The notes beneath the pieces were generated by a model. It was not told the DNA's origin, did no database searches, and worked only from the letters and a program-made list of their open reading frames with translations. The position numbers were made by a program, and so were the translations under genes. DNA of 62,138 nt from Atractiella rhizophila (Eukaryota), in NCBI GenBank assembly GCA_021432655.1, contig MU271408.1, positions 9,373 to 71,510 of the forward strand, in the 5' to 3' direction. How positions within the stretch are numbered: the first letter of the stretch is position 1; every line of letters starts with the position of its first letter. This document shows, one piece after another, positions 36,596 to 44,997 of this stretch.

Positions 36596-37245
36596 GCGGT
36601 AATCGTTGACGAATCGATTTGCTTTAGACGAACAATTCAGCCTGTTGTACAATGTTAAGTGGAGATGTTCGCATTCGATTTTCTGCTCCAATGCTTCACG
36701 ATCAGTTGCTTCAGTTGCAGGATTCAAGGGTTTGACTTGTCTTTTCTCAATCGCTCTATGCTCGTTCAACTCCCCTCTTGCGCATCTTAGTTTCAAAGGT
36801 TCTTCAGCGCCCGGCGCTCGATATCCATTTCGTTGTTCTGTCCTTGTCCAAAATCTCTCCTTTCTTGATCGCTCACACATACCTCAAACCCATATTATAC
36901 GTTGCAATTGTATCGAACTGAATTCATAATACAGAGAAAGACTCTGGCGCCAATCAGTCAGTCTGCAATTACACATTACACATTTCATGGTGGAGCACCT
37001 ATGGTGAATTTGGCACGTACTACTCTAGTCAGAAGTAGAGCTGAAGAAATACATATGGCGCAAAGTTGGCTATGCTCTCTCATCTCATCACCAAGGGCTA
37101 GATGGCCGGATGCCAAATTCACCTCACAGTAGCATATAACTATACTCGTTAAGGTAAAATCGTAAATACAAGAAGAAAGGCTCGACGTTGCCAAAATCAG
37201 GAGCGTCTTTTGTACATTCTCCGTCAAGAAAGAAAGCTTTTACAG

Positions 37246-37887
37246 TCATTCAACAAGCTTGACTTCCACCTCCTGGTTGCGGTCAGCATGTGAAAGAAGA
37301 AGCACCTCAAAGACGCACAATATTACCCCTCGTCGCTCTGGAATAAGGACAGAACTCATGCGCCTTCTCCACTAACTTCTTCGCCTCTTCCACGCTCAAA
37401 TTCGATCCCTCTAAGCTCGAATAAGGCACTTCGAGCTTCACACCGAGCATGAATCCGGGGATGTTCGTGTCCTTAGGTGTTCCAAGATGGACGGATGCGT
37501 CTACACGAGTTGTAGAAGGAAATTTGGGATTCTTAGGATAGAGGGAACGATACACGGCTCCCATTGCTCCTGCGAAACAGGTGGAGAAGCCTTTCTCCCA
37601 GAAAGAACGAAAACATTATACCTCGCTGCTGCATATTGAACTCATCGAGAAGGAAAGCACGGACCCATGCCAAATAATTCCTCTGGATTCCTTCCGGTGC
37701 CCTTTCCTCCCAAACCAGGGGGCATTTCCATATTTAATGTCAACTCCCCATTCTTCAGTTCGCTCCTTCCTCCGGCCCTTCCGCCGATGGAAGACGCCTC
37801 GGCCACATACTTTGTATTGATGCTTGAAAAGCGCCTTACCGCTTGTTTCGAGATGACCAATGAGGTTCTGAGTTGATTCCTCAACAT
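37246..37887 (-). CDS. ohr: Organic hydroperoxide resistance protein (Ohr/OsmC family) with probable mitochondrial presequence
   Basis: GGRAG, GLGGKGTGRNPEELFGMG|FSTCF (peroxidatic Cys), AHEFCPYSRATRGN (resolving Cys); Arg/Ser-rich, acid-free N-terminus. Confidence 0.9.
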
Positions 37888-38034
37888 TGCGTAAATGTTG
37901 ACTTCGTCGTTCTGATCGACAATAATTTTTAGGAAGTGAAGAATGCGTCAAGTCATTCAACAACCACGAGCAACGCGTTTGCCTTGTCTCTTGCCAGTGC
38001 TCAAACTACCGAAGAGTAGTAGCAGAGCACACGA

Positions 38035-41000
38035 ATGTCCTTAGCAGAGGCGTCTGCGGCGCTCTCGTCCCTTGCTTCATCGTCTACGACACTCGACAGC
38101 GTCATACCCATTCTCCTGCCCTTCTTCCTCTCACGGAGACATACACATTGGTTCTGCCTCTCAGATGTAAAGGACAACGAAAAGGAGACGCTTTGGGACT
38201 CAGCCGTCTTTCTCCTTTGTTTATGGAGGTACAAAGCGAAGGATTTGATTGCTGACTGGGGTGCTAAGCTGGAGCGGTTGCTGGGCGAAGATGGATGCGA
38301 AACGTGCATCAAGCGCTATGTAAGGGCTAGGAATGAGCTGGGTGAGAGGTGAGTCTAATTTCTAGTCGAGACGCATTATGTGCTTGATCGTGGTGGTTGG
38401 ACGATGTCAAAATGACAATGTAGCTGAATGCTGCTGGATCATAGAAAGAACTGGCTTAGTAACTGATACGACTTTGCTCCTGGTGCAGATTTTGTTGTTT
38501 TATAGGCAAGCTATCGCTCAGCGTAAGCTTCATAGCTGCTTTTGGGGTTTCTGTCCTCAGTTTGTATAATGGATGGGCAATTCATTCTTGCTTCATAACG
38601 AGCCTCATCGATAGCCTACGATACGCTGCAGCTAGAAATATCATGGTCCCATTTTTCCCGGCGTATATTGTAGTGCTGCATCTGGGAGACTTGATCAAGT
38701 TTTTGACCGTCTGTGCTTGCGATAGGCACTCCTAAGTACTCGGGAATGCAGAATGGTGTTCTCCTTGTTTCTATGCTATGAAGCTTTGTCACCGTTTCAT
38801 CTGAATCTAGAACACCAATATGCCGTGCTCAAAGATTTGACAGCCTGTTAACATCCTCATAGGTATCTGCGGTTGCGCTATGATCACGCCGCTTTAAAGC
38901 AATTTTATACGGCAGTGGCGAAGAAGGAGCGAACCCCTCTCTTGCAGAAATACACTACTTTCCCTCTTCCGGCGCTCATCCAGCTTCGAATCCTGCACGA
39001 TCTCTCACTCTCTGCCGACCGTCAACTTCTAGACCTCCTCATTCAGTCGCCCCCCGTGACAGCCACCCACCCACCTGAAGGACCACTCCTCCTCCTTGCC
39101 TTCCACGAGTCTGAGGATGTTCGAATGTGGGCTATGAAAAGTATGACGGGGAGGAATGTGGTGGATGTTGGAGAGTGGAAGACGGTGGACCCCCTCTTCA
39201 CTACAGTCCTTGTGAGGCTAGGGAGACTTTACAATGACCTGACGCTGGCAGAAGCGAAGGAAGGAAATTATAACCCGTTTGCAACAGGGGACAGCTTCCC
39301 CTTTTCAGACGACAGGAAGGTATTCTGGGACTCTCTAAACCCAATCCTGCCCCTCTTCAGCAAGCCTGTTCTGCGCCAGTTGCCAAAGAGATTTCGCCAA
39401 TTCATCCTCTCCCATCTAGGCGACAACGAGGATTCATTCGAGGGTATTGTGCGGTGTTCTGGCATCCTCATGGATCAGATGAGCATTGGTTTCTGGGAAG
39501 GTCTTGGGGAGTCCAACGTGGTAACGAAAGGGGAATCGTATCCAGTCGTCGTATTGAACCGACTGCTTTCCAACCCTGTTCTGGAGATGCTTCTCAAAAC
39601 CTCACCAAAAACCAATCCTTTCGACCATTTTCTTATCCAATTCTTGTTCTCTGTCCCCTCTTCCAGAGCTGATTGCCTCCGGTATGCATCCGCCGCTCTC
39701 TTTGGCACTTTCCAAGCTTCATGGATACCATCACATGGAATTGCGTACTGCATTCTATCTGGGGTGAAGCTCTGGAAGCTGGTGAATCAAGAGTGGATCT
39801 CGTCGTCTCAAGCTGTAGCAGTAGGAGAATATCTATCTGTCCTCGAATTACACAGCGATTTCTTGTCTCAAGTAGCTTTCAGAAACGAGAAGAAGAAAGA
39901 GTTCAAGGAGAAGATGCAAAAAGAACGGACGACAGTGGTATTGGATGACGAAGCGGCAAAGGCATGGAGGGAAGTGTCTAAGCAAGTCGCTGGCATTTTA
40001 GGAGTGATCATGCTCGAGCAAGCGGAGAAAGTTCAACGTTTTGTCATATCTCTTTCGAAAGGTATCAATCAGCTCATGAAGTCTTTGGAGGATATCGCGT
40101 CCGCTGGAAGAATGGCACAGAAGACGGGTACAGAACCGCCAAAACACAAGCAGCCAGTACTGACGGTTCCACATCGCCCTGACCTAGGAGCAACGGTTTG
40201 GAAACGTGTCTATAAGGAACTCGAGGCGGAGAAATTTGTGTTGCCCGGTCTCGTTCAGCTCATACCGGTAGTCGCTGCTGCCGCTTTCGTCGGAATCACT
40301 CTGCCGTCGAAACCTCCGGACGAGGTCAAGAATGTGAAAGGGACGATTGCTTGGGCTGGCGCGATGTTGGGAAGCTTTAGGGAGGGTTTTGGAGAGTTAT
40401 TAGATAAGGATCAGACCGGGAGGACGGTTCGGGAGATCCTGTCATTGGGTGGAAGGTCTGGGAAGGGTCTCATTAAGCTCATCTTCTCGCCCGTGGAGGA
40501 CGTGCAGACCAGTGTCACGAATGCTCTTCAGCAGAGCTTTGACGCACAGGATCGATTAGAGCTCTTTCGCGCTCTCTTCAAGTTTGCTCCAGAGGTCACC
40601 CTCGCTGGTATCCATGAAGTCCTGAAAACGTTCGTGGCGACCGCAAAGTCTCTCGTGGAGGCGACCGGCTTTTCTAAACGTCTTGTTCGGTGCCTGAACG
40701 ACGTGGTCGAAGTACTGTGCGATTCAACGAGCTCGCCGAAAGGTTTCTTTCACGACATGGCTTGGAGGAAATCGATGAAAGTGTCCGCGTCGGCAAAGGA
40801 TCTGTGGAGTCTCATGTGTCAGGCCACGACGATCATTTACGAAAGGACACAGCACTGGGCACCGTATTATACCACATCTGAGATGGTGGACTGGATGAGA
40901 GATGTCGTCGCTTTCCAAGTTGTGATGGTGGAGAATATCAGGGCGTTCCAAAGCGTTTCAGCTGATATCGTTATCACCAATTCTCCCGCCAAATCGTCGA

Positions 41001-44000
41001 CTCGCTCCTCAGATCCTTTCGTAGCCGATCTCGATAATTCCCTCGAGAGGGTGACCAGTAGTTGGTTGCGATTGAACGATATGCACCTTCTCCAGAACGT
41101 CACAGACCTCATCTGCAAAGTCGTCAATCTCTTCGCTCGATATAACGTTGAACTTTCAAAAGGCTCTCTTCAACAACTTCATAAGTATATTGACAAAGGT
41201 CTCGACATCCGTCCCATCGCCAAGAAAAGTACGCTTCTCACGGCGGATCAGATCACCTCCATGCTCACAGCTCTCGTAAAGCATCCGACGCAAGGAGACC
41301 CGTTCAAAGCCATCTTAGACAAAGCACAGCAGGGTGCTTCTGATAACCAGGAGGTGATAGAAATCCTGGATGATGAAGTCATGGAGGTAGAACAGCCTCA
41401 ACAGGCAAAAGTGGTCCCCAAGAAAGTGAAACCAACACCTGCTCCACAAAAAGGGTCCACTTCAAGGGCTCCACTGCCGCCAAAAACAGTTCAGAAACCG
41501 ACTCGTCCACTTAACCCTCTCAATGTTGCTGCAAAATCGACTCCTCAGCAGCTCAGCTCAGAAGATGACACGGAGTCAGAGGATGAAGGTGGTTTGGCAG
41601 CACTGGGCAAAGCTCAGAAAGATTCTCCCATCAGACGACCTCCTCAGCTCATTCGACCAGCTCGGACTGATCCCTTCACGGCCGCTCCTCCTCGCCGAAC
41701 GATGATGCTTGACGGACCCCCTGGACTGCAACGAAGGCAACCAATGGTCATGACCGAACAACAGCGTCTGCGTGAAGAGCAGAACCGCAGGGTGAACCGT
41801 CGGAATATGTGCAATAAAGTCGCCAAAGAATTCGATGGATTATACCGTACGATCCTACAGTGGGATCCGAGCCAACCAGGAGAATACCCGCCAGGATTTT
41901 CTCGACCACTCAAAAGTGTTGCTCATACCTTTAAGGAAGCGAAGGACTATCATGCTATCTTTCATCCCCTTCTTATGATTGAGTGCTGGCAGCAAATCCT
42001 CAAAGCGAAAGAAGAAGGTGCCTCCTCCGACAGGTCCCCTCTCACTGTCAAGATCGCTGATCGCTCAAACGTCGACGACTTCGTTGAGTTGACAGTCGTT
42101 CCCACGGCTCAGGAGTCTATCGAGAATCAGGAATACAGCGAAGTTGACTTAATTGAACTTTCGCGTAGAGGCAAAACAATCCTCGGCAAGATCTCCTCGG
42201 TACAAAAGAAGAGGACACAAATCGAACTCAAGATCATCTGCAGCTTCGGGAACGATGTTAGCAGAGTCGGGTTGGATCTAATCCCGAATACAGATTGGGA
42301 GCTGAGTAAGGTTACGAGGTATACAAGCTTGTTTGACAAAGCCGATCACTGATTCTGATGTTTGCAGTTTGAGCACGATCATGCGAGAATATGCAGCCCT
42401 TAGGACCCTACCCTACTTAGAAATGCGCGCCGATATTCTTAAACCACATCTTCCTCCACGTCCAAACATCGAATCAGCCGATATTCGTCGCGTTATGCAA
42501 ACTTACAAAGTGAATGAGCCTCAAGCGGCGGCCATTACCGGGTCTTTACAGACTCGCGGTTTCTCTCTCATTCAAGGGTACGCACTCTAAGGCTTCCTTG
42601 ATTTCCACTCAATTCAGGAGCAGACCACCTGGTACTGGTAAGACCTCAACAATCGTTGGCCTTGTTGGCGCTTTCTTGTTCGAGAACAAGCTTTGTGGAC
42701 GACCGGTTGGTCGAAAGCCGAAATTATTGCTGTGTGCTCCTAGTAACGCTGCCGTTGACGAGGTGGCCAAACGACTCAAGGACGGGGTGAGAAACGTGCA
42801 AGGGGCATTGGTTGTTCCGAAAGTCGTAAGAATTGGCGCCGAGGCTTCAGTTAACCTTTCCGTAAAGGACATCTTCGTGGATTCTCTGGTGGACAAAAAG
42901 CTGGAGCGAGAGCCGAAGCCGAATGAAGTTGAGGGCGTCAACGCGGAGGTGAAACAGCTTGCTGCTCAACTCGAAGAGACAAAGACCCGCAAAAATCGAA
43001 AACGGGAGGAGATTGAGACTACGCACAACAATCAAGCCCTTGTTACGAAGTTGGAAGGCGAACTTCGAGCCATAATTGCTCATTCCAACAGCCTCTATCA
43101 GCAGCTTCAGGATAGGAAGGACAAACTCAAAAGCACCTATCGCGCCAGGGACGACGCAAGGGTTAGAGCGAGGAAGGAAGTTCTCGACGAAGCAGATGTT
43201 ATCTGCGCTACCCTTTCAGGCTCCGGTCATGACTATATGGCCAACCTTTCCTATGAATTCGACACCGTTATTATTGATGAAGCTGCTCAGTCAGTTGAGA
43301 TCAGCTCTCTCATCCCGTTGAGGTATGGGTGCACAAAGTGCATCCTAGTTGGGGGTATGTTCCTGAGTACTCGGTCACGTGATCTAAACCAATTTATGTC
43401 GTAGATCCCAATCAGCTGCCGCCCACCGTGATATCTACTGAAGCAACAAAGGCGGGATACAATAACAGCATTTTTGTGCGGTTGCAAGCCGAGTCTGCAC
43501 GAAATGCTTATCTGCTCAGGTTGGGTCCTCCTTGATTTCGATATTCTGCTTACAGGCTACCTTCATAGCATCCAATACAGAATGCATAGCACTATAAGTG
43601 CTTTCCCCAGCAAGCAGTTTTACCAGTCGCGTCTCATGGACGGTCCGGGAATGGATGAGAAGACGAAGCGACCGTGGCATCAAAACCGCTTGTTTCCACC
43701 GTACCGTTTCTTTGATATCGATGGCAGAGAGGAAAGGGACAGGTTTAATTCGATCGTGAACCGATTCGAAGCTAACATGGCCGTTCAACTCTACGCGCGG
43801 CTGCAGACCGCCTGTCCGTCCAGTTTTCTCGATTACCAAGTTGGGGTCGTTGCTCCTTACAAAGGTCAAATGGTCGAACTTCGCCGTCAGTTCAGAGCTC
43901 GATTTGGTCAGGACATCGTTGGAAAAGTAGATTTTAACACAGTCGACGGTTTTCAGGGGCAAGAGAAGGACATAATCATTCTCTCCCTCGCTCGAGGCGG

Positions 44001-44997
44001 TAATGATGACGCTGGCGTCGGTTTCTTGAAGGATACGAGGCGAATGAACGTAGCCTTGACTAGGGCTAGAGCGTCCCTTTTTATTCTTGGGAACTCTAAG
44101 GCCTTACGGCAGAATGAAATCTGGAAGGCGTTACTGGATGACGCCCAGGAAAGAAACGCAATCCAGCAGGTAAGTGGTTGTGAGCACATGATGATCTAGT
44201 TCAGACCTTCTTTCAGTGCGACAAATATACATTTTCCTCTGATATCGCGCCGTCTGTCAACGAGACTTCAAAGACACCAGTTCCCTCCTTGCTAAAAGCT
44301 TCACCTCGAAAAGCAGCGGCCTCGAAAACGTCTAAGGGTAATAATAAACCTGTGGCTGAATCTCCGATCCCGGAGCTTTTCACTCCTGGTCAGTTTTCCC
44401 AAAATCGACGTAGTAACTCTGCATTGCAGCGGTCTCTCTCCTCCAACCTCGGAAAACGCGAACTTGCAGAGCCCCAGTCAGACTTGCCTCGAAAACGACC
44501 ACGAGATAGCGTAGATACCAGTACGAGGGAAAGCTCGACGAACGGACAAGGAACATTGCACAAAACCAACATGTCTGGCCCGCAGGCTGCATTGATTCCA
44601 GGTTGTCCGCGCGACCCCGATGATATGGACATAGACAGTCCTCCTCTCAAAACGACACCGTTGCCTGCAAGTTTGCCTCAGAAACCTAGCAGCGCTGTTG
44701 GCGATTCTTTGCGAACCGATCCACGCAGTGGAATTTATCCCAATATCAATAACCGACCGCCAGCGGCGCTATTCCACAACACAAATGGTCCTTCAAGTCG
44801 TGTCAATGGAATCACGCTTCGTGGCCCTCCTTATAATGAGCCTGAGGTACCAATCTACTTATTTATAGAGTGAATATTGAGCTTATTCAACTACTCACTT
44901 ACAGATCCCAGAAGAATCTCGACGGTCGAGGGGTGATCATGTCGATCGTCGAGAAGGCAGAGGCAGAGGCAGAGGTAGAGGTAGAGGGAGGAGGTGA
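38035..44997 (+). CDS. SEN1: Sen1/senataxin SF1 RNA-DNA helicase; long first intron 38349-38862
   Basis: N-terminal HWFC...GCETC, large SEN1_N region, QG|PPGTGKT, LLCAPSNAAVDE, IIDEAAQ, VGDPNQLPPT, QYRMH, TVDGFQGQEKD, RRMNVALTRAR; last exon ends GRGRGRGRGRGRR*. Confidence 0.93.

Follow-up and report, generated by a model that had tools for sequence, protein, structure and literature searches.

Candidate recursive splicing around a 17-nt poison exon in the long first intron of SEN1 in Atractiella rhizophila

The SEN1 locus and its first intron

The analysed stretch of 62,138 nucleotides (the window) carries SEN1 of Atractiella rhizophila (Pucciniomycotina), recognised by the Pfam domains SEN1_N, SEN1_barrel, AAA_11 and AAA_12. 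Coding exon 1 (38035..38348, plus strand, as are all SEN1 features below) opens the annotated protein P0002, and its HWFC and CxxC motifs align with basidiomycete Sen1. It is followed by intron 1 (38349..38862), a phase 2 intron of 514 nt and single copy in the genome, which starts with the donor GTGAGT and ends with a branch-like TTAAC and the acceptor TAG (38848..38862). Exon 2 (38863..42318) is defined by its open reading frame, its Pfam matches and P0002, which is identical to the protein predicted from it. Intron 1 is a real intron, because P0002 joins 38348 straight to 38863, with no residues from within the intron, and the homologous proteins require zero extra residues at this junction.

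The length of intron 1 sets it apart from the other six SEN1 introns (49, 46, 50, 49, about 30-35 and 58 nt), which are about ten times shorter, and from donor-to-acceptor distances in 523 kb of the genome (both strands), which peak at 40-59 nt. Intron 6 (44170-44204) appears to be about 35 nt long, a size that fits the reading frame and is very short for a spliceosomal intron; an alternative with a nearer AG would be 30 nt and truncates the frame. P0002 ends at 1613 aa, where the annotation runs into a 49-nt intron (43520-43568) with the weak donor GTTGGG; once this intron is spliced out, the reading frame continues into the AAA_12 domain. The annotation may be wrong at this point, or SEN1 may have here a second unproductive event, by intron retention.

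On the minus strand lies an OsmC/Ohr-like gene (37307-38035), with a weak match to Pfam OsmC (E 0.002). About 100 nt separate its start from the start codon of SEN1, which implies that the divergent promoter between them is very compact. Upstream of the 3' end of the OsmC-like gene there is a perfect inverted repeat of 13 bp (37003-37123, arms at 37003 and 37111). Two contigs, from sequencing runs X1 and X4, stop at 37966 and 37970, which hints weakly at the 5' end of SEN1. Elsewhere in the assembly UPF1, Mago and some flanks are found in at least two near-identical places (contigs C351/C32, C502/C411 and C4/C1073) and U1 in five, as if two haplotypes had been partly assembled. SEN1, unlike these genes, is present in one copy only, and protein and DNA searches of the genome found no second SEN1 allele.

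Contigs of four of the six listed runs (X1, X2, X4 and X5) each contribute one exonic piece (137-244 nt) with no joints, leaving intron 1 uncovered. Of the six runs only X6 has a large word share, 0.66; a source containing exons only would give about 0.60 (827/1371, by our own arithmetic), so X6 may be spliced RNA, although this share is no evidence of splicing.

Among relatives, an alignment scan of metagenomes gave three loci from six stretches, and the intron position is covered by just one of these loci, L003. There, in the same phase, L003 carries an intron of 82 nt without internal YAG|GY or GTRAG. At 1105-1250 L003 has an extra intron of 146 nt where the window has a continuous exon 1. 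Two metagenome proteins (P0030 and P0016) have short in-frame insertions at the junction that look like retained introns, and four others (P0008, P0013, P0029 and P0036) have none. Because the L003 intron is only 82 nt and the insertions are short or missing, the long form of intron 1 is not general. The compared lineages, about 25% identical, cannot serve as a test of a recent element. No close relative came out of the protein searches (best-segment identities 24-42%), the exact 23-nt pattern at the exon end occurs in 0 metagenome stretches, and no relatives were found in the bacterial-genome (0/2 stretches) and viral (0/37 stretches) collections.

Internal splice signals of intron 1

An earlier note on this DNA had placed in intron 1 a branch-like ACTGAT, two acceptors and a donor, which together would create a poison exon, and we found all these motifs at their positions. 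The branch-like ACTGAT occupies 38462..38467, and the same CTGAT stands before the acceptor of SEN1 intron 2. The first internal acceptor, TGCAG (38484..38488), is predicted to be paired and would be non-productive; it is followed by a T-rich tract (10 T in 14 positions) with the second acceptor TAG (38489..38505), the motif TTTTATAG ending at 38505. The GT donor GTAAGC (38523..38528) then closes a cryptic exon of the “RS” (recursive splicing) type, 17 nt long (38506..38522), or one of 34 nt if the first acceptor is used. Translation confirms the frameshift proposed for both exons, with stops after 121 aa (17 nt) and 122 aa (34 nt), and all five non-productive routes through the intron stop early, at 105-186 aa. 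Inclusion of either exon is thus predicted to create the premature stop expected of a poison exon, and the presence of NMD machinery in the organism is suggested by UPF1, the one UPF protein searched for, whose UPF1_Zn_bind domain scores above the cut-off; Mago is also present. No protein of the short isoform was found among 18 candidate proteins.

The same note had called GTAAGC a strong donor, a description that does not hold. Scored against the U1 of this genome its duplex reaches -4.7 kcal/mol, weaker than each of the six real SEN1 donors scored out of seven (-5.6 to -11.2). GTAAGC is overrepresented at the short-intron donor distance (7 vs 2.7 expected; 523 kb, both strands), and we regard the donor at 38523 as usable but not strong. 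Pseudo-exons consisting of a branch, an acceptor and GTRAG arise in 3894 of 20000 shuffles of the intron (19.5%).

A further motif had been missed. Directly 3' of the acceptor at 38505 lies GCAAGC (38506..38511), a donor of the GC type and a candidate recursive splice site. Joining exon 1 to 38506 would rebuild a GC donor with the junction AG|GCAAGC, and splicing of this donor to 38863 gives exactly the annotated mRNA. After the first splice its U1 duplex (-5.0) would be about equal to that of the GT donor (-4.7). The order expected at a recursive site, a branch and 3' splice site followed by a 5' splice site motif, is recognisable here as ACTGAT, the T tract and TAG|GCAAGC, and the rival donor that RS-exons carry within about 100 nt downstream would be GTAAGC, 17 nt on. 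The junction itself reads AG|GC and not the canonical AG|GT; since the AG|GT is lacking and no intermediate has been observed, we do not class the site as a member of the RS-exons.

The combination of a branch with YAG|GYRAG appears in 123 of 20000 intron shuffles, and in 3 of 256 tiles of the window (the 38505 site included). For the rest of the genome the count is 6 of 798 tiles; none of the 798 adds GTRAG within 100 nt, and none adds a tract of at least nine T in 14. Neither of the two other matches in the window has an evident intron around it. AGGC[AG]AG at donor positions shows no excess that would mark GC donors (2 vs 2.7 expected in 523 kb, an underpowered sample). The TAG at 38505 is the second AG after the branch, 39 nt from the branch A, while the distance from branch to first AG in this genome is mostly 9-23 nt. 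The segment 38506-38522 resembles 38523-38536, so the two donors may derive from a short tandem duplication; if they do, these features are not independent.

Several other readings of these signals were rejected. The intron is not a [D] stwintron: if it is removed as far as 38488 or 38505, a split GT donor is not restored, and use of the upstream GTGAGA at 38342 would shift the frame. In-frame coding microexons conflict with the zero insertion needed by the homologues at the junction, and an intronic ORF of 90 aa has no Pfam match. Motifs of the Nrd1/Nab3 type are not enriched (4 vs 2.3 and 1 vs 3.5).

Predicted RNA structure and a model of two-step removal

The last 38 nt of exon 1 (38311..38348) are predicted to fold back on the intronic segment 38511..38541, forming a helix of 28 pairs with a duplex energy of -29.5 kcal/mol. 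In the part-spliced intermediate the fold-back probability is 0.83-1.0 at all five lengths folded. Positions +1..+5 of the GC donor are unpaired there (0.84-1.0) and stay so at 20, 25 and 37 C, while the GT donor is mostly paired at -3..-1 and +2..+6, with +1 excepted. In the unspliced RNA the helix has a probability of 1.0 in folds reaching up to 38700 and of 0.001 in two longer folds; a third longer fold gives 0.92 at 37 C and 0.09 at 25 C. The C and A of the acceptor at 38488 have an unpaired probability of at most 0.03 in 12 of 12 folds. The TAG at 38505 is partly open in folds that include exon 1 (0.8 at 37 C, 0.3-0.5 at 20-25 C), and its last base is paired in the shorter folds.

How special the exon-1 helix is depends on the null model. 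Its duplex energy is matched by 99 of 12420 segments of the window (self matches included), and by 16 of 3000 shuffles that keep composition; among 56 genomic YAG|GYRAG sites it is reached at one, the 38505 site itself. A null of random 11-mers for the exon body gives 21 of 3000. In terms of net folding gain the helix is unremarkable, being equalled by 286 of 3106 segments (9%), and intron 1 itself holds at least 12 further segments with a better score. The nulls therefore disagree, with 0.5-0.8% in three and 9% in the fourth.

A second helix had been pointed out in the earlier note, namely the perfect match between AAGCTTCATAGC (38525..38536) and GCTATGAAGCTT (38775..38786). Both arms are present and the 12-bp match is perfect, with a duplex energy of -17.2 kcal/mol. 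Perfect helices of at least 12 bp occur in 20 of 3000 intron shuffles (0.7%); the window has three of them, and 20 shuffles of the window have 0-6. Only 2 of 20000 intron shuffles contain a pseudo-exon whose donor is covered by a 12-bp helix, a figure we discount because the finding was chosen for that very coincidence from very many windows.

From the motifs, reading frames, gene model and predicted folds described above we infer each of the following splicing steps, and any regulation. We tentatively prefer the reading that intron 1 is removed recursively via the rebuilt GC donor, with a leak into the 17-nt poison exon and a bias imposed by the fold-back of exon 1. In the first step intron definition would pair the donor at 38349 with the internal branch (38462) and with the acceptor that follows the T tract (38505), removing 157 nt and bypassing the nearer CAG at 38488, presumably concealed by pairing. 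In the second step the donor AG|GCAAGC, plain in the sequence, would be spliced to 38863, removing 357 nt and giving the annotated mRNA. If GTAAGC, 17 nt on, were used instead, the 17-nt exon would be kept and the message, with its stop after 121 aa, would probably be directed to NMD. The bias would come from exon 1 folded on 38511-38541, with the GC donor looped out and most of the GT donor buried. With the former displayed and the latter buried, the productive route would be the default, and the distal 12-bp stem could act at most as a transient second mask. All the features that speak for recursion were found after the fact; each occurs at about 0.5-1% by shuffle, and one other null gave 9%.

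One can further suggest that a structure-gated choice after the first splice determines how much SEN1 is produced, with opening of the exon-1 arm flipping splicing to the poison exon; we consider this extension unlikely. The arm might be opened by Sen1 itself as it travels along exon 1 in the 5' to 3' direction. Another candidate is the exon junction complex, which usually sits about 24 nt upstream of a junction; this site is predicted to fall within the part of the arm that pairs with positions +4..+8 of the GT donor. If the extension were true, the opened exon-1 arm would act as a recursive-splicing feedback switch in a fungal intron of 514 nt. Feedback by Sen1 is unsupported.

Other readings and comparison with known systems

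A serious possibility is that intron 1 is a long first intron peculiar to this lineage and taken out by a single splice, in which the internal sites and helices arose by chance and produce splicing noise only. In favour of this reading, pseudo-exons arise in a fifth of the shuffles (19.5%), the whole intron folds no better than shuffled sequence (z = 0.0), the two further branch and YAG|GYRAG matches of the window lie outside evident introns, and scanning very many windows picks out rare coincidences. The distant relative L003 has no conserved internal sites, and early branching, reported as common in longer fungal introns (10.1101/224170), also backs the noise reading. What speaks against chance is the coincidence of three uncommon features on a 36-nt element: the recursive motif (0.6-0.75%), the exon-1 helix (0.5-0.8%, and 9% in the fourth null) and the distal stem (0.7%), two of which played no part in selecting the finding. 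Under intron definition, moreover, there would be a cost to having a good branch and acceptor at 140-157 nt from a strong donor if their use were always non-productive. If the internal sites are not used, SEN1 intron 1 is an ordinary long first intron.

Rather unlikely, in our view, is ordinary AS-NMD with no recursion, either as a poison cassette or by choice of an alternative 3' splice site; part of the transcripts would then use the internal acceptor, never productively, and a protein factor would set how many. The early stops of all five non-productive routes (105-186 aa) and UPF1 in the genome agree with it, and AS-NMD is known for fungal RNA-processing genes (PMC4379411, 10.1101/226894). 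It leaves unexplained why a GC donor lies at the exact junction and is displayed in a loop, and fungal exon skipping is described as rarer than retention (PMC12861292).

The earlier note had proposed that the 38525/38775 duplex normally hides the GT donor, and that Sen1 or slow elongation opens it in a negative feedback. Despite the perfect match (-17.2 kcal/mol; 2/20000 together with a pseudo-exon donor), and although the stem does form in some partial transcripts, this model is very unlikely. The stem has a probability of 0.00-0.04 in five of six folding contexts, the exception (0.65) being the window trimmed to the stem; it is 0.0 in all eight span and temperature settings of the whole-locus folds and near 0 in the part-spliced intermediate. 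Only transcripts that lack exon 1 and end at 38787-38795 raise it to 0.8-0.99, and the stem is lost as soon as a local hairpin (38748..38823; own z-score -1.24) can close. Nothing ties Sen1 to this duplex. In full-length folds this hairpin takes most of the 3' arm, and the stem also loses to pairing with exon 1. The 3' arm of the stem, moreover, is transcribed about 240 nt after the donor at 38523. In fungi intron definition prevails, with splice sites paired across introns (PMC12861292, PMC6616335, PMC7138796), so a masked downstream donor would leave the upstream donor free to use the internal acceptor, and plain skipping of a cassette by the stem is therefore poorly explained. The long intron, the exon with a premature stop, UPF1 and the idea that structure may bury the GT donor stand from the earlier interpretation, while the distal 12-bp stem as the gate on this donor is not supported by the predicted folds.

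It is highly improbable that the intron is long as the host of an unrecognised non-coding RNA or as the remnant of a mobile element, with the inverted repeat as part of it: a recursively spliced S. pombe intron of 336 nt does sit in a snoRNA locus (10.1101/226894) and there is a hairpin at 38748-38823, but an Rfam search of the intron gave no match at E up to 5, the sense strand has no C box and no rRNA complement above 10 nt, the intron is single copy with no visible target-site duplication, and the 12-mer, with 10 genomic occurrences where a control has 5, lacks its partner arm at all eight other sites. A C/D snoRNA host was rejected for want of a C box, an rRNA guide and an Rfam match (H/ACA forms were judged by Rfam only), and a MITE was rejected on terminal inverted repeats, target-site duplication and copy number. 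We also rejected an antisense-strand match of 13 nt complementary to LSU, since about 0.1 such matches are expected by chance (our own estimate).

Among the titles and abstract openings listed in literature searches none concerned a SEN1 poison exon or recursive site, and where PMC12511879 deals with Sen1 it says nothing of how its gene is spliced. The SR protein and Smndc1 poison exons, examples of autoregulation by AS-NMD (PMC4379411, PMC11357089), are alike in that a frameshifting exon lies in an RNA-processing gene; they are described as conserved and demonstrated, whereas the SEN1 exon is a candidate read from the sequence.

Parallels for the preferred, recursive reading include RS-exons, in which competition involves an acceptor, the donor rebuilt at it and another donor that follows within less than 100 nt (PMC6224609, PMC5126111). 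The cryptic RS-exons of vertebrates and Drosophila would share with SEN1 the competition of donors in part-spliced RNA and an inclusion that may cause decay. As described in these sources, they belong to very long introns, exon definition and mostly AG|GT junctions, whereas SEN1 has an intron of 514 nt, a GC donor and an upstream-exon fold-back that is predicted to set the bias. AGGT is required for recursive sites in 10.64898/2026.09.10.750672, and non-GT donors at such sites are discussed in PMC5126111.

In the papers compared here the documented cases of recursive splicing in fungi are few, one in C. neoformans and two in S. pombe (10.1101/224170, 10.1101/226894), and the excerpts of these papers link none of them to a poison exon or RNA structure. 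In C. neoformans BOT1/CNAG_07884 an intron of 375 nt is split recursively into 210 + 165 nt (10.1101/224170), and S. pombe SPNCRNA.445 is also spliced recursively (10.1101/226894). Like them, SEN1 has a fungal intron of a few hundred nucleotides that would be cut where a 3' splice site abuts a 5' splice site (157 + 357 nt); those two are proven by junction, branch or end reads, whereas the SEN1 case is predicted only. SEN1 would combine a rebuilt GC donor with a rival GT donor defining a premature-stop exon, neither of which is mentioned for BOT1/CNAG_07884 and SPNCRNA.445 in the same excerpts.

If our reading is true, a spliceosome working by intron definition would skip a poison exon without exon definition, via a rebuilt GC donor. 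The locus would also be a candidate route to control of Sen1 dosage. Since the locus is of minigene size, the rivalry of two donors 17 nt apart in part-spliced RNA is directly testable. Fungal [D] stwintrons and the exon skipping in rtnA present a similar logic, in which consecutive splicing under intron definition allows a short exon to be skipped via a rebuilt donor (PMC6616335, PMC7138796). Donor duplication has been proposed as their origin, and in SEN1 the segment that begins with the GC donor likewise resembles the one that begins with its GT rival.
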